Below are positions 1-7,615 of a stretch of 64,000 nucleotides of DNA, piece by piece. How positions within the stretch are numbered: the stretch's first letter is position 1; each line of letters opens with the position of its first letter. This stretch comes from an uncultured Chitinophagaceae bacterium. GTDB lineage: Bacteria > Bacteroidota > Ignavibacteria > UBA10030 > UBA8401. The DNA lies in assembly GCA_964371615.1 (NCBI GenBank), contig CAYJMS010000003.1, forward strand, positions 212 to 64,211, written 5' to 3'. The position numbers were made by a program, and so were the translations under genes. The notes under the pieces are model-generated. The model made no database searches, was not told the origin of the DNA, and saw only the letters and a program-made list of their open reading frames with translations.

Positions 1-28
1 AAAATCTGCCTCGAAAATAGCACAATCT

Positions 29-832
29 ATGGAACATGAAAATATTAGCCAACCCTCACTTACAGAAAGCGAGAGGATTCTATTCACGGAAAAAGCAATA
101 TCTGCCGGAACAATGCTTGGTGGTCCGTTAGTAGGTGCTTATTTAATTTCAGAAAATTATAAGGCATTAAATAAAAATGATGATGCAAAGAAAACATTAA
201 TATTTGGAATTACTGTTACTCTAGTATTTTTCCCAATATTGCTTTATGTACCTGAACACATCATGGATAGAATCCCTGAACAAGTATTTCACTTTTTTTG
301 GGCTGCAGTTGTATATTTTATCGTCAAAAAGTATCAAGGAGATTCAATCATTGAACATTTAGTAAATGGAGGTAAAAAAGGTTCAGGCTGGATAGTGTTT
401 TTTTCAGGTTTGATTGGAGCAGTAATAACATTTGGTTATATAATTGCATTTGCGTTCGCACTAACACCATACGAAACAGTTTCCCATATACCTTCTGACT
501 TATTGCCGTTGCAAATTGAAAATACTTCTGGTGTTCTCTATTATGATACACTAAATATTAAAGAACCAGATGCAAAAGTTGTTGGATTCTTCTTGACGCA
601 ATTAGGATATTTCAACAGAGAAAGTAACAATGAAGCAGCATATTATAAAAAAGATGAGATATACTATGTTGGAATGGGCATTCCCGAATTTGCTTGGCAA
701 AATGAAGGCATACAGCGGGGCGCTAAATTGTTAATACAACAATTGGCAGCATCTTATCCGAACCATAATTATCAAGTTGTTTTGAGTTCCATTGATTCTA
801 CCGGTGAAGCAAAAGAATTCATTATAAAATAA
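29..832 (+). CDS. Hypothetical membrane protein (cassette gene)
   Basis: 267-aa ORF with several TM segments; stop lies 7 bp before an attC R''. Confidence 0.75.
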   Translation: MEHENISQPSLTESERILFTEKAISAGTMLGGPLVGAYLISENYKALNKNDDAKKTLIFGITVTLVFFPILLYVPEHIMDRIPEQVFHFFWAAVVYFIVKKYQGDSIIEHLVNGGKKGSGWIVFFSGLIGAVITFGYIIAFAFALTPYETVSHIPSDLLPLQIENTSGVLYYDTLNIKEPDAKVVGFFLTQLGYFNRESNNEAAYYKKDEIYYVGMGIPEFAWQNEGIQRGAKLLIQQLAASYPNHNYQVVLSSIDSTGEAKEFIIK

Positions 833-839
833 ATTGGTT

Positions 840-1004
840 GCCTAACACGTCGCTCAAGCGGACGTTGTAACCGCGCCCGCACTTAATATTCGAGTGTTGA
901 GTAATAAACCAACGCCATACGATGCGGGGAAGAAACAAGCAAATCAATCAACAGTCGCGGCGCGCAAAAGCGTTACAACGCCGCTTAGTTCCCATCCGTT
1001 AAGT
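840..1004 (+). repeat. attC site 1 (intact, 165 bp)
   Basis: R'' GCCTAAC 840-846; R' GTTAAGT 998-1004; CTcAAGCGGaCGTTGTAAC pairs with GTTACAACGCCGCTTAG, leaving two extrahelical bases (G and T on the bottom strand). Confidence 0.92.
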
Positions 1005-1023
1005 CGACATTTGTCAGAATTAC

Positions 1024-1242
1024 TTAGAAGTCATACTGGAATACTTCCTCGACGGGTACGCCGAATACTCTTGCAATCCTGAATGCTAAAAGGAGTGATG
1101 GTGCATATTGGTTTGCCTCTAATGCAACGATCGTCTGACGCGTTGCTTCAACAAGATCGGCAAGGGCTTGCTGCGTCATTTCGTTTTGATTGAAGCGATG
1201 CCGTCGGATTTGGTTGTGAAGAACAGGTGTTTTCTTATTCAT
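1024..1242 (-). CDS. XRE/Cro HTH transcriptional regulator
   Basis: MTQQALADLVEATRQTIVALEANQYAPSLLLAFRIARVF is a typical HTH_3 pattern; start at MNKKT chosen. Confidence 0.9.
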   Translation of the reverse strand: MNKKTPVLHNQIRRHRFNQNEMTQQALADLVEATRQTIVALEANQYAPSLLLAFRIARVFGVPVEEVFQYDF

Positions 1243-1243
1243 G

Positions 1244-1654
1244 TTATACACTCTGTTTGTATTGAACAAGTATTGCTACGGAATGAACAATTGTGAATAA
1301 CAGCCATGCTATGAAAACTGAATCTGGGAGCACACTTACAGGAACAACATTCGTGTGATAAATATGCACGGCTATCCACCATGTGCTGACGCTTGCAATA
1401 ACATAAAACAGCCAGAATACCCGAAGCGCAATGAGCATAGCACGACTGTTTATGGCTTGATCGCGCTCATCCATCTGAATTTTGCCGGGTTCAGATTGAG
1501 AACGGGGGAAAGGCAAGAACCAAAGAATTGCGAGAATCGCGAAAGCACCCCAAGCGACGCTCAGATCGATAAGAAGAATTATTGATACAAATACAATAAC
1601 CGACAAAGTGCAAACTGCGAGACTCTGCCAAGCGATTTTTTGTAGCATTGTCAT
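1244..1654 (-). CDS. Small membrane protein (DUF2178-like) paired with XRE regulator
   Basis: 4 TM segments with DERD motif; ATG 1654 preceded by AGGAG. Confidence 0.7.
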   Translation of the reverse strand: MTMLQKIAWQSLAVCTLSVIVFVSIILLIDLSVAWGAFAILAILWFLPFPRSQSEPGKIQMDERDQAINSRAMLIALRVFWLFYVIASVSTWWIAVHIYHTNVVPVSVLPDSVFIAWLLFTIVHSVAILVQYKQSV

Positions 1655-1710
1655 GGTTGATCTCCTTTTCAGTGGCATATATTTATAAAAACGTATGATA
1701 TAACAGACCA

Positions 1711-1739
1711 AATGTAATATATAGCGGACACAATGTCAA
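1711..1739 (-). promoter_or_regulatory. Promoter of the reverse-oriented cassette
   Basis: TTGACA-17 bp-TACATT(TG) on minus strand; repeated ATATA..GGAC/AGAC motifs may be XRE operators. Confidence 0.65.
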
Positions 1740-1807
1740 ATATAAAAGGAATCTTTGCGTAAAATGGTAAAAACGAACAAAAACCCAGAACATGCGTTCC
1801 GCAAGCG

Positions 1808-1970
1808 GCCTAACACGTCGCTCAACCTGAGGTTACAATCGCGATCGTGTCAGAACTGAATTTATCGAGAAATCTAAACACAGATAGCTACACGAAACAG
1901 CATATTAAACTAAAAACGGACTGCAGCCCGCTAAAACATTGCATCGCAGGTTATCTCTAGTCCGTTCGGC
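1808..1970 (+). repeat. attC site 2 (163 bp)
   Basis: R'' GCCTAAC then ACGTCGCTCAA identical to site 1; AACCTG/CAGGTT L boxes; R' GTTCGGC 1964-1970. Confidence 0.85.
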
Positions 1971-2006
1971 GGTGCGAGTTTATATTATAGAAAAGGAAAT
2001 ACTGCT

Positions 2007-2354
2007 ATGAATGATACAACGAAACAACCAATGAACAAACGCGCTCTTACTTCTATGTTTATGTTTTTTGCATTCATTTTGCTGCCGCTTTCCGGAGTTC
2101 CATTGCATTATGCCAGAACGGATGCCGAACCGGGAGTTGTAGAGCATTTCTTAATGAGCATGCACAATATAAGTGCTTTGATTTTCCTTGTTGCGGTTTT
2201 TATTCATCTTGTTTTCAATTGGAATGCACTGACAAAATACATCGTGACTAAAACGGTTGAATATTTTCAATTCAGGAAAGAGATGATCATTGCATTATTT
2301 ACCGTTGTCGCAATAGTCGGTTTGTTTTCATCTCATGCCTTACATACACACTAA
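2007..2354 (+). CDS. DUF4405-like small membrane protein with conserved His
   Basis: 3 TM segments, SG..H and H...HLVFNW motif. Confidence 0.7.
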   Translation: MNDTTKQPMNKRALTSMFMFFAFILLPLSGVPLHYARTDAEPGVVEHFLMSMHNISALIFLVAVFIHLVFNWNALTKYIVTKTVEYFQFRKEMIIALFTVVAIVGLFSSHALHTH

Positions 2355-2368
2355 TCAAATAGGGCGCC

Positions 2369-2661
2369 GTCTCACCAGTCATTCAACCTGATGCTTCGCT
2401 GCGCTCAGCACAGGCTCTGCAAACCGCTCAACGAATCGCAGACCGACGTGCCTGGTGTTTTGAGTGTGGAGAAATTAACTAACACCATATGTCACGGGAC
2501 AGCATTTTTTATTTTAATCTTTTAATCCAGCGCACTGGAACGCCTGCCATGCCTTCGGCATGTAAACGGCAGGCGGGTTTGCACGCACACTACCTGTCCC
2601 CGCCCGCCTGTGGCGTTCGGGCGGGCGCCACGCTTCTTAGCGGAGTTCCAGTCCATTAGAC
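2369..2661 (+). repeat. Degenerate attC site 3 expanded by inserted hairpins
   Basis: GTCTCAC...ATTAGAC cores (GCCGTCTcAC / aTTAGACGGC); GC-rich hairpins at 2541-2575 and 2601-2627. Confidence 0.65.
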
Positions 2662-2684
2662 GGCAGCAGTAAGGAGATCGATCA

Positions 2685-2993
2685 TTGTTAGCAGTATTTT
2701 TACCATTAATTCTCTGGTTGTTCAAGTCGTACATATATTGGATCGTCTTTCGTATCCGTACAATTAAAGTTGCCACAGTAAGCTGTTTTATTATTGGAGG
2801 GGCGCCATATCTTTTAATGATTGTACCTATTCCACTTCCTGTTTTTCTGTCAGCTCCGATTGCAGTCGGACTGGCGGTATATTTAACAATGCACTATACA
2901 GGAGTACACCTTATTCCTAATGGGCTTTTCATTCCTTTGGGAGTCGAAATTTTCTTTGGCATCGGATTCTGGTTGATTCAACATTTGATTTAG
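2685..2993 (+). CDS. Hypothetical membrane protein (cassette gene)
   Basis: Hydrophobic ORF, AAGGAG RBS 8 nt upstream of TTG. Confidence 0.65.
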   Translation: MLAVFLPLILWLFKSYIYWIVFRIRTIKVATVSCFIIGGAPYLLMIVPIPLPVFLSAPIAVGLAVYLTMHYTGVHLIPNGLFIPLGVEIFFGIGFWLIQHLI

Positions 2994-3036
2994 TTCGTTT
3001 TATGTAAATTAAAGTATTTAATTTGTTAAGGTTGCC

Positions 3037-3091
3037 GCTTCACCGGTTACTCAAATTGCCGTGCAAACCGCTTAGCTCCAGTCCGGTATGG
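3037..3091 (+). repeat. Degenerate short attC site 4
   Basis: GCTTCAC-CGGTTACTCAA...CCGCTTAGCTCCAGTCC-GGTATGG resembles both ends of site 1. Confidence 0.6.
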
Positions 3092-3101
3092 CGCAAAAAG
3101 A

Positions 3102-3980
3102 ACGAAAAATATCACTTTAACAATAATTTTGGCATTGATTGTCGGGTGTCAAAAAGCAACATCAATAATAACTCCAAGTAATGATACAACCGGTAGTATT
3201 ATTATACTCAATAGTATAGCAATGAATATTTTTGGGATTGTAAATACCGATACGATTTATGCAGACCAATCCATTATTATGATTGACAGTATAAATGGAT
3301 ATTCGAATGGTTTGATAACACAAGGAGATGGACGATATTTATTACTTAATAAGTCCAAAGGAAAACATTATATCAATATTGAGCATCCCTTTTTTTATAT
3401 GTTTGACTCAGTTATGGATATTACATCTAAAACAATAAATATTAAATTAATTCCAAAAGTAGCGGACTTTCTTCCACTAAAAGTTGGAAACAACTGGATA
3501 TACCAATTTAAAACTAATTCATATGATCATGGGGTCCCTCCGAGGAGGCGCACATCCGGAGTAATTTCAGTTACAATCGATTCAGTATCTTCATCCCCCG
3601 GTCCATATTACATATATAAATACTGGTATGTAAAACAGGTGGAAATAGACACTCTTTATTATGTCGACAATCCCATTGTTCCCCCAGATTCTTTACGATA
3701 TACCAATGTTGAACGACATTATACAATAATTGAAGACTATAGACATGATACTCGATCAAGCATCTCAAATAATGTTTATGACCCATTTATTTTCTTTGAA
3801 AATTTGTATTACTATCCACGTTATAGAATACCGGATAATTCGGGGAATATCGTAGATCACGACAATAATAAATACACAAAAAATATTGGATTTATAGAAT
3901 CAAACATCACTTCGTCTGATCCCAATTATGGGACATATTATGAAAGACAGTATTGGTTAATTTCGTCAAATTTAAAATAA
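3102..3980 (+). CDS. Putative lipoprotein (start codon appears as ACG)
   Basis: In-frame ACG-KNITLTIILALIVG|C gives a complete lipoprotein signal; the ORF track starts later at TTG 3129. Confidence 0.7.
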   Translation, partial: TKNITLTIILALIVGCQKATSIITPSNDTTGSIIILNSIAMNIFGIVNTDTIYADQSIIMIDSINGYSNGLITQGDGRYLLLNKSKGKHYINIEHPFFYMFDSVMDITSKTINIKLIPKVADFLPLKVGNNWIYQFKTNSYDHGVPPRRRTSGVISVTIDSVSSSPGPYYIYKYWYVKQVEIDTLYYVDNPIVPPDSLRYTNVERHYTIIEDYRHDTRSSISNNVYDPFIFFENLYYYPRYRIPDNSGNIVDHDNNKYTKNIGFIESNITSSDPNYGTYYERQYWLISSNLK

Positions 3981-4057
3981 TATTTTGTGCCGTAACCAGG
4001 TACTGTGTAAAAAGTCAAGAATAAGAACGTAACTATTTCAAAGAACACGACAACAGA

Positions 4058-5068
4058 TTAGCGAAGACCAAAATCACGATCATAAGGGACGTTATTTTTC
4101 CAAAGAGTATAAATCAGCAGCAGTAATTTCCGAGCAACAGCAATCAGAGCCAGTTTTTTGTTTTTGCCTTTAGCAATCAATCGTTGATAGAGCGCCTTCA
4201 TTTGTGGATTATGCCGCACGGCAGACAGGGCAGGCATGAAGACGGCATGGCGTAAGAACCTATTCCCTTTTTTAGAGATGGAGGTTTTCCCTCTTTTTAG
4301 GCCCGAATCGTTAAAGACCACGTCATAGCCGGAATAACTGGCAAGTTGTTTTTGTTTAGTTACGAGTTTGAAGCACTGAGTCTCAGCCAGGACCGAGACG
4401 ACAGTCATAAAACCGATTCCTTTTGCCGTGCAGATGTTGGGAACCCGTTCACAAAGGATCGTATCAGTATCAATCAGTTCATGGAGTTCCTGTTCGATCT
4501 GAGCGAGTTGTTTCTCGAGCAAGGCGATAGTTTGCTGTTTGCGTTTAAGAGTTGACTTCAGAGGCTGAAAAGAGTATTTCAGGGCATGTCGCTGGTTTTT
4601 AATTTGGGTGATGGTCTCTTTCAAAGCGTGATATTCTCTGGTCAAGGCCTGCATGGATTTCATGGTTTCGGTAGGCGGAGTCCAGAGATTGAGTTCACGT
4701 TCCAACCCAAAGCGGGTGATCGCAGCAGAATCCAACGGATCGGTTTTGGATTTGGAAGTGAGGGATTTACAATAGTTTTTGATCTTATTCGGCAGAACAA
4801 CGGCAACAGAGCAATGATTTTCAACCAGGAAGTATGCAAGTTGCTGATAATAAATGCCGGTGGCTTCCATAACAAAGATGAGCGGGAGGTCGGGAGAAAT
4901 ACCCGCCGATCGGGTCCATTTCAATAGTTTTTTGAATCCTGACAATACATTATCGAACGATTGATCCGGTGTAAGAACAATGTGGTGCTTGGGATCAATG
5001 GTTCCGAACCGGACGTTGAATGTGTCCATGGCAATATCAATACCGACGATTTGTTTTAGGATACTCAT
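4058..5068 (-). CDS. IS110-family DEDD recombinase/transposase
   Basis: GIDIA, MEATG, KTDPLDS (DEDD RuvC-like); C-terminal SYSG...DSG...ISKKGNRFLR; AAGGAG RBS. Confidence 0.96.
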   Translation of the reverse strand: MSILKQIVGIDIAMDTFNVRFGTIDPKHHIVLTPDQSFDNVLSGFKKLLKWTRSAGISPDLPLIFVMEATGIYYQQLAYFLVENHCSVAVVLPNKIKNYCKSLTSKSKTDPLDSAAITRFGLERELNLWTPPTETMKSMQALTREYHALKETITQIKNQRHALKYSFQPLKSTLKRKQQTIALLEKQLAQIEQELHELIDTDTILCERVPNICTAKGIGFMTVVSVLAETQCFKLVTKQKQLASYSGYDVVFNDSGLKRGKTSISKKGNRFLRHAVFMPALSAVRHNPQMKALYQRLIAKGKNKKLALIAVARKLLLLIYTLWKNNVPYDRDFGLR

Positions 5069-5104
5069 AGAAAAACTCCTTATGTTTGGAGAGAAAATAA
5101 GGGT

Positions 5105-5343
5105 TCATTGGCACTTTCAGTGGTGATCTTGACTCGTCACATTATACAGGATTCCCGTTAATAGGATCCTAAAGTACTGTTCAGATTCTGCTGAAAATAC
5201 AAAGTCATAGGGAGGACGTCTTCTGGTTAACGATATTCTTTCCTGCTTGAAAGATATCTAGTCGCTCTTGCCTCTCCTATGACTTTGCCAATGTTTATTC
5301 GCCGATTCATTGGCGAAGACTTACAATACGGGGTTTTGATACT
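5105..5343 (-). ncRNA. Predicted bridge RNA of the IS110 element (ends approximate)
   Basis: 5' hairpin 5287-5314; target loop closed by 5200-5215/5271-5287 with guides at 5260-5267 and 5223-5229; donor loop with guides at 5172-5180 and 5133-5137. Confidence 0.85.
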
Positions 5344-5425
5344 TGGGTCAACATACGAGTCACTCACATTGACGTGACAACTTGGTTCCAGTCCGTTAGG
5401 CTGCACAGAAAGGAGTGCAATCGAT

Positions 5426-6097
5426 ATGAAAGACAAAATCATAATTGTATTTCTGCTTGTAATTGCGATTCTGCTTTCCTCATCGACAGGATGTAAGAAA
5501 AGTTCATCTTCACCTATCGAGCCTACTGATACCGATACAACCGGCGGCGGCCCTGTTGTTCGTAAGCCCAACATTTATTTATATCCGCAGACTAAAAGTA
5601 TTGTTACGGTAAAATTAGAGTTTCCGCTCGGCGGCAAAGTCATTGAATCAATACCTGCATATCAAGGTGAATGGGTTGTTGAAGTTGAACCATCCGGTAC
5701 AATAAGCGGTCAATACGATTATTTATTTTATGAGAGTCAAACTCCCGACGCATATCAGTATAATTCCGGCTGGATTATTGAGAAAGATAGTCTTGAATGG
5801 TTTTTCAGAGCCAATCTTTCTGCTGTCGGTTTTAATGAGCGTGAAATTACGCACTTTATTGACTATTGGATTCCACGACTCACGGTTTATTCACGCTATG
5901 TTATTTATCCACAATTTTCAAATGAAATTGAAAGAGTGATTAAACTACAAATCGATACAACGCCGGATAATTTATTGCGGCTTTTTTATGTCATTCAAGG
6001 TTCGGATACTATTACGCTGAACTTGTTTGAGCCGGTAATTCCGAAATTTGATAGAAGTGGTTTTGTAGCAACTGAGTGGGGTGTTATATTAAAATAA
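5426..6097 (+). CDS. Lipoprotein, KPxIYLYP-motif hypothetical family
   Basis: Signal peptide ...STG|C; RKPNIYLYP, YDYLFYE, FIDYWIPRL, EWG motifs; AAGGAG RBS. Confidence 0.8.
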   Translation: MKDKIIIVFLLVIAILLSSSTGCKKSSSSPIEPTDTDTTGGGPVVRKPNIYLYPQTKSIVTVKLEFPLGGKVIESIPAYQGEWVVEVEPSGTISGQYDYLFYESQTPDAYQYNSGWIIEKDSLEWFFRANLSAVGFNEREITHFIDYWIPRLTVYSRYVIYPQFSNEIERVIKLQIDTTPDNLLRLFYVIQGSDTITLNLFEPVIPKFDRSGFVATEWGVILK

Positions 6098-6111
6098 ATC
6101 ATTGGTTCAGC

Positions 6112-6228
6112 ACACGAGACAGCAAACGGTAATTGAAACAGTCTACCGCACGCGGCGTACCTGTCCCCGCCCGCCTGTGGCGTTCGGGCGGGCGTCGCGC
6201 TGTGTGGCGGGGTTCCAGCTCATTAGCC
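6112..6228 (+). repeat. Degenerate attC-derived repeat (site 6)
   Basis: Shares TCTACCGCACGCGG..TAC.TGTCC...GGCGG.GTTCCAG..CATTAG with sites 3, 7, 8, 9; R'' not recognisable. Confidence 0.55.
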
Positions 6229-6255
6229 GGCAAGAAAATGTAAGTAGAGGAATAA

Positions 6256-6528
6256 CTAAGCGGCGTGTTCGAGGTTTTGTTTGGCTGCGTATAGATCGCA
6301 CGCTACTTGCAGATTCATCCAGAATTCGGAAGAAGTTTTAAGGACGCGTGCAAGTAGCACAGCAGTTTCTGCAGTCATATTACGTTTGCCGTTGATAAGT
6401 GTATTCACTCTCTGCACAGGCACACCCATTCGGCGAGCCAATTCCAGTTGGCTCAGTTCCATCGGGCGTAAAAACTCTTCTATGAGAATTACGCCGGGAT
6501 GAGTCGGTTTTCTGTTTTTTGGTATCAT
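6256..6528 (-). CDS. higA: HigA-family antitoxin
   Basis: PTHPGVILIEEFL...SQLELARRMGV...EFWMNLQ. Confidence 0.93.
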   Translation of the reverse strand: MIPKNRKPTHPGVILIEEFLRPMELSQLELARRMGVPVQRVNTLINGKRNMTAETAVLLARVLKTSSEFWMNLQVACDLYAAKQNLEHAA

Positions 6529-6539
6529 TTTGAGGCCCT

Positions 6540-6830
6540 TTAATGATAATCAATAATTTGAACATCTTTTGCATTACCTTCAGACCATTCGAAGACAACT
6601 CTGTATTGATCATTGATTCGAATAGAATGCTTCCCTTTGTCATTGCCTTTGAGTGATTCCAATCGATTTGATGGCGGGATCCGAAGATCCATAAGATCGT
6701 GAGCCGCATTCAAAAGGTCGAGCTTTCTCACGGCGATTTTCCAAATGACAGAGGGTATTCGTCTGGCTTGTTTGGTGTCAAAACCATTGAAAATGTCTTC
6801 GGTAGTCCGGTCAAGGAAATTGATTATCAC
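6540..6830 (-). CDS. higB: HigB (RelE/ParE) toxin
   Basis: MIINF...RKLDLL...DLRIPPSNRLESLKG...HSIRINDQYRVVFEW...IIDYH; toxin upstream of antitoxin. Confidence 0.93.
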   Translation of the reverse strand: MIINFLDRTTEDIFNGFDTKQARRIPSVIWKIAVRKLDLLNAAHDLMDLRIPPSNRLESLKGNDKGKHSIRINDQYRVVFEWSEGNAKDVQIIDYH

Positions 6831-6835
6831 GACAC

Positions 6836-6864
6836 AATATACTACTTTAACGGCATACGTGCAA
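6836..6864 (-). promoter_or_regulatory. higBA promoter
   Basis: TTGCAC-17 bp-TATATT, ending 5 nt before the GTG start. Confidence 0.65.
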
Positions 6865-6882
6865 GTGGTATGTATTCTTGCC

Positions 6883-7028
6883 GACGAACAAGGTGCGGTG
6901 GAAAAAGTTGTGAATAATTCACTTACATTAATTCACCAGGACATCACGCGTGGCGGCGAAAGGAAACTAAATATTCTACTGCACACGGATTTCCTGTACG
7001 TCATCGGCGTAATTCCAGTCCTTTAGAT
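6883..7028 (+). repeat. Degenerate attC site 7
   Basis: TTCTTGCCGACGAAC (6875-6889) is complementary at 12/15 to the cassette start ATTAGCCGGCAAGAA (6222); ends TTCCAGTCC-TTTAGAT. Confidence 0.6.
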
Positions 7029-7051
7029 TGCAGTAATATTCATCCGCATAA

Positions 7052-7615
7052 ATGAAAAAATTAATACTCATATTTATTTTGTTTAATGCAAAAGTACATT
7101 CTCAAGAACTTAGACTATTTACTTTTTATGGTGAATTTGGATATGGCTACTCAAAGACTGCGTTTACAAGTGCCAATGGTGGAATCGCAATAAATTTAGC
7201 TATTACCGGCGGATACGATAACTGGTTAGTGAAGTACGCACGAAGGTTGAATAATGAATCTGCACTTATTGCTCCGCAAGAGAAAATAAATGCAAACTCA
7301 TTTTTGATTGGCCGCTCATTTATTTTGCACCAAAGTATCAATGATACTAATGATGTTACTTTAGAATGGAATTTGACAGGATATATCGGATATAGTTCAA
7401 TAGAAAATCAAAAGAGAGGAAAAGTATTACATTCGGATCGGTATACAACCACCTATGAGCATATAGTAGAACACGGTAATGGAGTTCCGATTGAACTTGA
7501 ATTGCAGTGCATATCACCCCACTTTCAGGCAGGTGCAATAAGCGTATTCTATAATGTAAATGAATTCAGGAATTATTACGGAATTAACTTAATGATTTTT
7601 GGGGGATATTTTTAA
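7052..7615 (+). CDS. Secreted/outer-membrane beta-barrel-like hypothetical protein
   Basis: Signal peptide, alternating aromatic/Gly strands, C-terminal Phe. Confidence 0.7.
   Translation: MKKLILIFILFNAKVHSQELRLFTFYGEFGYGYSKTAFTSANGGIAINLAITGGYDNWLVKYARRLNNESALIAPQEKINANSFLIGRSFILHQSINDTNDVTLEWNLTGYIGYSSIENQKRGKVLHSDRYTTTYEHIVEHGNGVPIELELQCISPHFQAGAISVFYNVNEFRNYYGINLMIFGGYF

Follow-up and report, generated by a model that had tools for sequence, protein, structure and literature searches.

The donor-binding loop of a predicted bridge RNA in the left end of an IS110-group insertion sequence from an uncultured Ignavibacteria bacterium

Upstream of the recombinase gene of an insertion sequence in an uncultured Chitinophagaceae bacterium (GTDB class Ignavibacteria) lies a non-coding region in which two short segments match the two ends of the element itself, and the question raised by this locus is whether these segments are the donor guides of a bridge RNA. 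The window, by which we mean the whole stretch of 64,000 nucleotides that was analysed, covers positions 212 to 64,211 of contig CAYJMS010000003.1 (assembly GCA_964371615.1). An original prediction, made from the letters of the window, had read the region as a donor-binding loop matching the circle junction of the element. The family of the recombinase, the matches of the guides, the covariation of the stems, and the way in which guides track element ends all support this reading, and we conclude with high confidence that 5115..5196 is the loop by which a bridge RNA, encoded in the left end of an IS110-group insertion sequence, binds the donor.

Bridge RNAs are known from IS621 (Durrant et al. 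2024, PMC11208160; Hiraizumi et al. 2024, PMC11208158). In IS621 the first loop of the RNA serves the target and the second the donor. In each loop the 5' side base-pairs with 8-9 nt of the bottom strand and the 3' side with 4-7 nt of the top strand, all four guides take in the core, and the stems carry bulged A residues (PMC11208160, PMC11208158). The right donor guide is discontiguous, with two bases flipped out and one G:T pair, and each 3' guide is followed by two handshake bases that pair, once strands have been exchanged, with the other DNA (PMC11208158). Because bridge RNAs have been predicted in 85.7% of IS110-group elements (PMC11208160), that of the window is an expected member of the class rather than a new kind, and its donor loop is an ordinary new example of the mechanism described in 2024.

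The element, its borders and its recombinase

The insertion sequence occupies 4000-5357 of the window on the minus strand and measures 1360 bp counting one CT core. Its parts are as follows.

3998..5359, minus strand: whole element with a CT core at each border, delimited by a second copy at contig ends, two relics, multi-copy relatives, and branching contigs of public runs
4000..4057, minus strand: right end, 58 nt; its last 7 nt, ACAGTAC (4006..4000), are the left donor, and the end motif is kept in relatives
4058..5068, minus strand (read 5068..4058): recombinase gene, 336 aa, with DEDD_Tnp_IS110 and Transposase_20 domains; the sole long ORF near the donor loop
5069..5357, minus strand: left end, 289 nt, non-coding; it begins with CGTAT (5357..5353), the right donor
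5081..5076, minus strand: ribosome-binding site AAGGAG within the left end

Comparison of flanks places the border cores, CT on the minus strand, at 3998-3999 and 5358-5359. A second copy of the element in the same genome (9 contigs) is split across the tail of contig C4 (445573-445637) and the head of C3 (1-76), the contig that carries the window, and its flanks part from those of the window immediately beyond 3998 and 5359, which fixes the ends independently. Further support comes from assembled public runs: two of these, possibly from the source sample, have an inner contig (4087-5361) that connects at either side to two alternative flank contigs, and in a run of another study a copy 95-99% alike has flanks departing at 3989 and 5366. 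Multi-copy relatives (5 and 4 copies) show the same type of border. The element accordingly ends in ACAGTAC + CT on the right and begins with CT + CGTAT on the left, so the junction ACAGTAC-CT-CGTAT of the original prediction is reproduced by ends fixed from the second copy and the branching contigs. CT at both borders, a long left end and a short right end make up the layout of the IS110 group, and no long terminal inverted repeat was present among the repeat pairs listed for the element. In one relative (L016; G229:C207, first 40 nt) the border carries a tandem duplication of the left end's first 16 nt, core included.

The protein carries both domains of the family (PF01548, 8.5e-24; PF02371, 8.3e-19) and the motifs GIDIA (D11), MEATG (E68), DPLD (D110, D113), and SKKGN (S265), that is, a DEDD (RuvC-like) domain together with a Tnp domain holding a catalytic serine. 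Its nearest solved relatives are the transposases of ISCro4 (1.2e-26) and IS621 (3.3e-25), both aligned over residues 8-331. Catalytic residues were assigned from the motifs and from alignment to the ISCro4 transposase (PDB 9t56), whose GID, MEAT, DxxD, and SK.G motifs align with those of the window protein, a comparison that concerns the protein alone. By its domains and motifs, the gene is an IS110-family recombinase.

The most durable alternative accepts the anatomy of the RNA as genuine and takes the window copy for a resting or dead element, which we consider unlikely. Two degraded relics do lie in the same genome (C1:1280204-1280463 and C2:185803-185896), the target of the window copy differs from its left target guide at one position, and neither a circle junction nor an empty site occurs among the assembled contigs of four runs, a kind of data that cannot show rare junctions. 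Set against this, the reading frame is intact with all catalytic motifs present, at least two copies with identical ends exist in one genome, and the closely similar copy in the run of the other study sits between other flanks.

The donor-binding loop and its conservation

With the ends fixed, the predicted RNA can be compared with them position by position. Its features bearing on the donor are given below.

5111..5289, minus strand (read 5289..5111): bridge RNA core of about 180 nt, target loop and donor loop; 130.6 bits by the covariance model built here, of which it is itself a seed
5115..5196, minus strand: donor-binding loop; outer stem UUUCAG (5196..5191) with CUGAAA (5120..5115), middle stem AUCU (5186..5183) with AGAU (5129..5126)
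5172..5180, minus strand: left donor guide (LDG), ACAGUACUU; identical to the right end's final 7 nt and the core but for one G:U wobble
5148..5170, minus strand: inner hairpin of the donor loop, AGGAUCC with GGA-A-UCCU and one bulged A; helix 4 of the model, 7/7 pairs changed on both sides and 98.1% of cells paired
5131..5147, minus strand: 3' side of the donor loop; conserved GUAUAA, bulge, right donor guide (RDG) ACGAG, then UC
5106..5113 and 5293..5286, minus strand: putative basal helix enclosing both loops, formed by pairing of a 3' arm, UGCCAAUG, with a 5' arm, CAUUGGCA

Read along the RNA strand, the loop consists of UUUCAG, AUCU with a GA linker, ACAGUACUU, AGGAUCC with GGAAUCCU, then GUAUAAUGUG, ACGAG with UC, AGAU, and CUGAAA. 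Reverse-complemented, 5172-5180 gives ACAGTACTT and 5133-5137 gives ACGAG; between the donor guides the DNA letters are AGGATCC (5170..5164) and GGAATCCT (5155..5148). Since the LDG has the same sense as the right end and core, it would pair with the bottom strand; it carries U for C at the first core base, and this U opposite the core G is a wobble. The RDG (5137..5133) is complementary to the core CT and the first 3 nt of the left end (CGT). The donor is therefore matched at 8/9 positions plus one wobble on the 5' side and at 5/5 on the 3' side, to which a candidate AU may be added, as the AU of the conserved GUAUAA probably pairs with A13-T14 of the donor across the bulge. The UC that follows the RDG (5132..5131) could be a handshake guide: in the target of the window element the two bases ahead of the core, GA, are complementary to it. 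Among relatives this pairing is complete in only 4/14.

On re-reading of the sequence, the coordinates and strings given for the donor loop in the original prediction proved exact. The 9-mer at 5180-5172 does match right end plus core at 8/9 with a G:U mismatch, ACGAG is complementary to CTCGT, TTTCAG/CTGAAA closes the loop, and all four segments follow one another in the order left target guide (LTG), right target guide (RTG), LDG, RDG. One stem needs trimming: of the proposed ATCTGA/TCAAGAT, AUCU/AGAU is kept in relatives, the GA is a conserved linker, and the UC is better accommodated as a handshake guide.

How readily such matches arise was gauged by shuffling the 289-nt left end 20000 times with its dinucleotide composition preserved. 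A 9-mer agreeing with right end plus core in at least 8/9 positions turned up in 545/20000 shuffles and ACGAG in 4467/20000, for which reason ACGAG is weak evidence by itself. Both donor guides in order and 20-90 nt apart were found in 22/20000, both target guides under the same restriction in 45/20000, and all four segments together in 0/20000.

Folding of the single sequence gave -72.9 kcal/mol for the left end, more stable than its own shuffles (z -3.2). This minimum-energy fold pairs the GUAC of the LDG with an upstream GUAU in an alternative hairpin, so that 4/9 guide nucleotides are paired, and the probability of that GUAC being unpaired is 0.07-0.16. Enforcing the comparative helices gave -72.1 kcal/mol, a cost of only 0.8 kcal/mol, and for this reason the single-sequence fold does not decide between them. 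On the point, raised by the original prediction, of whether folding buries the guide segments, the comparative structure keeps them in the internal loop, within this same small margin of the fold that pairs GUAC. Searching 3800-5600 against Rfam 15 at E up to 10 returned no family match, the one hit being a chance snoRNA match (E 0.94) outside the RNA.

Relatives were gathered by protein search from 401 genomes of the class (16 matching at 1e-40), 401 genomes of the phylum (29 at 1e-30), and one public MAG contig, and yielded a comparative set of 27 related RNAs from other genomes with 8 donor variants. RNAalifold, given 14 left ends, recovered both helices of the first loop, outer and inner, together with the hairpin inside the second; 18/25 pairs had changed on both sides. 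A covariance model of 169 positions and 38 pairs, in which the two closing stems of the second loop were added by eye, recovered its 13 seeds as well as three unseen RNAs (L021, 128.9 bits; L018, 118.4; L022, 31.5); it matched 11/26 further loci at 113.5 to 29 bits and left 15 without a match. It found no second full copy of the bridge RNA in the assembled genome of the window. A 16-row alignment was then made at a stricter threshold, leaving out three weak opposite-strand matches and including two rows (L014, L025) from an unpublished genome (G367) on which no result rests alone. In it, 92.9% of cells were paired, a figure that is favoured because the alignment was fitted to the model, vs 73.2% with shuffled partners and 37.9-47.3% with slid partners; 29/38 pairs had changed on both sides, under the same fitting. 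Two pairs proposed between the outer and middle stems of the donor loop were dropped, as 13 and 10 of the 16 rows were unpaired there. Covariation shows an RNA fold, shared by orthologues, of two internal loops that are each enclosed by a stem and contain an inner hairpin. The putative basal helix recurs at the same place with different letters in 14/14 relatives at a length of at least 5 bp, and of at least 6 bp in 11. A stem-loop in the 5' part of the left end (5317..5298; loop region 5312-5308) holds another GCCAAUG, the same sequence as the 3' arm of the putative basal helix; this hairpin is wholly absent from the closest relative, L008.

The relatives also bear on the other point on which the original prediction had staked itself, namely whether homologs with different ends lack compensating changes: their guides change together with their ends. 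In a first set, the first seven bases of the LDG are identical to the final 7 nt of the right end in 13/14 elements; L011, the exception, departs at 2/7 positions, with a wobble at one of the two. Where the right end closes with T rather than C, as it does in two elements, the guide has U. For a second set, the guide 7-mer was taken from the model alignment and sought downstream of the gene over 460 nt. An exact copy, 27-335 nt past the gene, was present in 10/10 elements with an intact gene and downstream DNA, an eleventh element (L054) being left out as truncated; chance would give about 0.03 per locus. The 7-mer is followed by CT in 8 of these, GA in 1, and TT in 1. In all, there are 8 distinct right-end 7-mers, each matched by its own guide.

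On the other side of the core, a left end CGT corresponds to ACGAG, with GCGAG in L013 and L043 amounting to a G:T wobble (G opposite T12); GGT corresponds to ACCAG (one element, 5 copies), TGT to ACAAG (one element, 4 copies), and CAT to AUGAG (4 elements). Among the relatives, the guides follow right ends of 8 kinds and left ends of 4-6 kinds. It is important to note that this covariation rests on few variable positions (2, possibly 3, 5, 7, 10, and 11) because the donor is highly conserved. Covariation of the guides with donor and target holds across orthologues, with the exceptions of L011, L018, and L040. In L018 (G357:C1, about 916-930) the left border has the core followed by GGT and the RNA keeps ACGAG, the gene match lacking the first ~110 residues. 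The three odd bases at that border equal the right side of the target, as if strand exchange had been resolved 3 nt further on. Two further elements (L041 and L048, in G483 and G494) fit only after the alignment was shifted by eye; their cores seem to be GA and TT in place of CT, with both donor guides altered to suit.

These data also bear on whether the segments act as DNA. Subterminal repeats, that is, protein-binding copies of the ends rather than RNA guides, would account for the fact that the right end is repeated directly in one segment and the left end in inverted form in the other, and covariation with the ends is also expected of protein-binding sites. The segments, however, sit in an internal loop whose stems keep their pairing through the two-sided changes counted above; the non-identities are mostly RNA-DNA wobbles, with T for C at core position 8 in 11/13 elements and G opposite T12 in two; and the same layout has been shown experimentally to act as RNA in IS621. 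The retention of U opposite G at core position 8 in those 11/13 elements fits RNA-DNA pairing better than a DNA repeat, and we regard DNA-level repeats as very improbable. The weakest alternative, that the left end is only a structured 5' leader controlling translation of the recombinase mRNA and that its matches to the ends are coincidental, draws on the frequency of ACGAG alone among the shuffles and on a hairpin formed by the ribosome-binding site region in the minimum-energy fold, and can be dismissed almost entirely, given the rarity of the donor pair, the failure of all four segments to occur together in any shuffle, and the contradicting covariation of the guides with both ends.

The target-binding loop and attC-like sites

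If the RNA is a bridge RNA, its first loop should match the DNA flanking the element, and it does so in the manner of the donor loop. The features concerned, in the RNA and in the flanking DNA, are as follows.

5204..5283, minus strand: target-binding loop; outer stem 5283..5272 with 5214..5204, inner hairpin 5258..5232
5267..5260, minus strand: LTG, GAGCGACU; 8/8 against the flank of the second copy, 7/8 against that of the window
5229..5223, minus strand: RTG, UAACCAG; complementary to CTGGTTA at both copies, 7/7
3989..3999, plus strand: left part of the interrupted attC-like target; imperfect R'' box, then C and the AG core
5358..5403, plus strand: right part of the interrupted attC-like target; ends in the R' box GTTAGGC (5395..5401), 24 nt before a cassette ORF (5426)
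6256-6528, minus strand: HigA-like antitoxin (HTH_3, 1.4e-10), within the array on the strand opposite the cassettes
6540-6830, minus strand: HigB-like toxin (7.8e-22), within the array on the strand opposite the cassettes
Window 1-7100; C4:435859-445637; C1:196.8-207 kb; C1:1269.6-1279.2 kb; C2:180.3-187.7 kb; C5:26.3-30.2 kb: attC-like clusters, several without a nearby integrase

Near-matches to the target in the genome share a much longer context. A 16-mer ending in GTTAGGC has 43 copies at up to 2 mismatches, in six clusters, and a profile built from 12 sites gave 32 matches, nearly all of them 120-215 nt upstream of small same-strand ORFs with signal-peptide-like starts. The units measure about 55-190 nt, full units about 160-190 nt, and run from GCCTAAC to GTTAGGC. 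Intact sites fold with their end boxes paired around a bulged stem; the site of the window itself is short, its first box is imperfect, and its boxes are unpaired in the minimum-energy fold. The boxes of integron attC sites follow the consensus RYYYAAC / GTTRRRY and form the ends of an imperfect hairpin. An integron integrase is encoded at C4:435859-436800 (444.2 bits on TIGR02249, cut-off 265; 0/14 control genomes pass), and one cluster begins ~750 nt from it and runs to the tail of C4, the site of the second copy. As this array reaches the C4 tail and continues at the C3 head, 211 nt before the window, the first 7 kb of the window lie in a chromosomal integron cassette array, composed there of ORFs without Pfam matches and the HigB/HigA pair. 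The sites combine boxes of this kind, arrays between small same-strand ORFs, and an adjoining integrase. Two other identities for the repeated motif, an ECF-type promoter and the 3' end of a gene family, were set aside, as the full 160-190-nt units with paired boxes and the neighbouring integrase pointed to attC sites.

The two copies and the two relics all lie within attC sites, at a point between the first box and the stem arm that follows, and all are oriented against the cassettes; three relatives (L008, L018, L054) have the same kind of attC-like flank. On balance we lean towards the view that this is an IS110-type bridge RNA naturally programmed to the R''-to-L'' part of attC, and that the element and its close relatives are specific parasites of the chromosomal integron arrays of the lineage. 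In the clades of the L010, L024, and L020 group another repeated target was seen, with CACAAAG / CTTTGTG-like arms and a REP-like hairpin, and the first-loop guides there are changed to match.

In the portions of the literature searched, no mention of attC targeting by IS110-type elements was found, such targeting being described there for the IS1111 type alone, and IS110 is not mentioned in the main text of Cury et al. 2016; this absence is weak evidence of novelty. The attC-directed first loop is nonetheless a less expected point than the donor loop.

Proposed mechanism, known systems and significance

On excision, the two ends would abut and form the donor (ACAGTAC, CT, CGTAT). The same event would set two candidate promoter boxes 17 nt apart, from which the left end may be transcribed.

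About 20 nt inside the right end, minus strand: candidate -35 box TTGACT, kept in relatives
5355..5350, minus strand: candidate -10 box TATGTT, kept in relatives

Together, TTGACT, 17 nt, and TATGTT form a candidate promoter that spans the computed junction, in the manner of the junction promoter described for IS621. The sole RNA run with related sequence gave two 151-nt contigs inside the recombinase gene and none on the left end, and is silent on expression of the bridge RNA. In the folded RNA, ACGAG would pair with CT + CGT, a step modelled on IS621 for which complementarity and covariation are the observations, and the first loop would pair likewise with the target, an attC site. The RNA-bound DEDD/Ser recombinase would then exchange strands at the CT cores, as the IS621 structures suggest, and after exchange of the top strand the UC following ACGAG may pair, as a handshake guide, with the GA of the target.

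The window element resembles IS621 in having its RNA in a long left end upstream of a DEDD/Ser recombinase; two loops enclosed by stems with bulged A residues, an inner hairpin lying in each loop; the guide order LTG-RTG-LDG-RDG with 5' sides for the bottom strand and 3' sides for the top strand, in matching polarity; a CT core within the guides and a discontiguous right donor guide; two candidate handshake nucleotides after that guide, complementary to the target bases adjoining the core; and a candidate promoter split between a -35 box in the right end and a -10 box in the left end. It differs from IS621 in several respects. The protein is distant (by phmmer, at the value and over the residues given above), the loops measure about 80 and 82 nt vs 65 and 68 nt, the bulge of the right donor guide is 3-6 nt vs 2, the LDG has U and not C at the first core position, the handshake positions of the target loop (AA) mismatch the donor (AC), and the target is attC vs a REP element. 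A putative basal helix encloses both loops in the window element.

Two other systems invite comparison. For the IS110-type ISEc21, the upstream non-coding region encodes a short seekRNA matching both target strands (Siddiquee et al. 2024, PMC11187229); seekRNA and bridge RNA name one phenomenon, the difference being that the work on ISEc21 stresses the target-recognising part and the present one the donor loop. The IS1111-attC group (ISPst6, ISKpn4; described via PMC11187229) comprises DEDD-transposase elements that insert at one end of attC in a fixed orientation. The window element shares this fixed orientation in attC, but the group is of the IS1111 type, in which the non-coding region with the RNA follows the gene and the subterminal inverted repeats are long, whereas the window element is IS110-type with a 289-nt left end and a 58-nt right end.

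The locus offers a clean natural example, from a lineage far from E. coli, of a bridge RNA whose donor loop tracks the ends of its own element, and the comparative set reproduces the published rule without use of a published model. The natural variants found, which include the core U:G, longer RDG bulges, apparent non-CT cores in two relatives, and the putative basal helix, may help the engineering of bridge recombinases. A bridge RNA aimed at attC links two recombination systems and may shape cassette arrays: if the attC reading is true, insertion splits the first box from the rest of the site and should freeze the neighbouring cassettes, and such insertions could seed attC clusters that lack an integrase.
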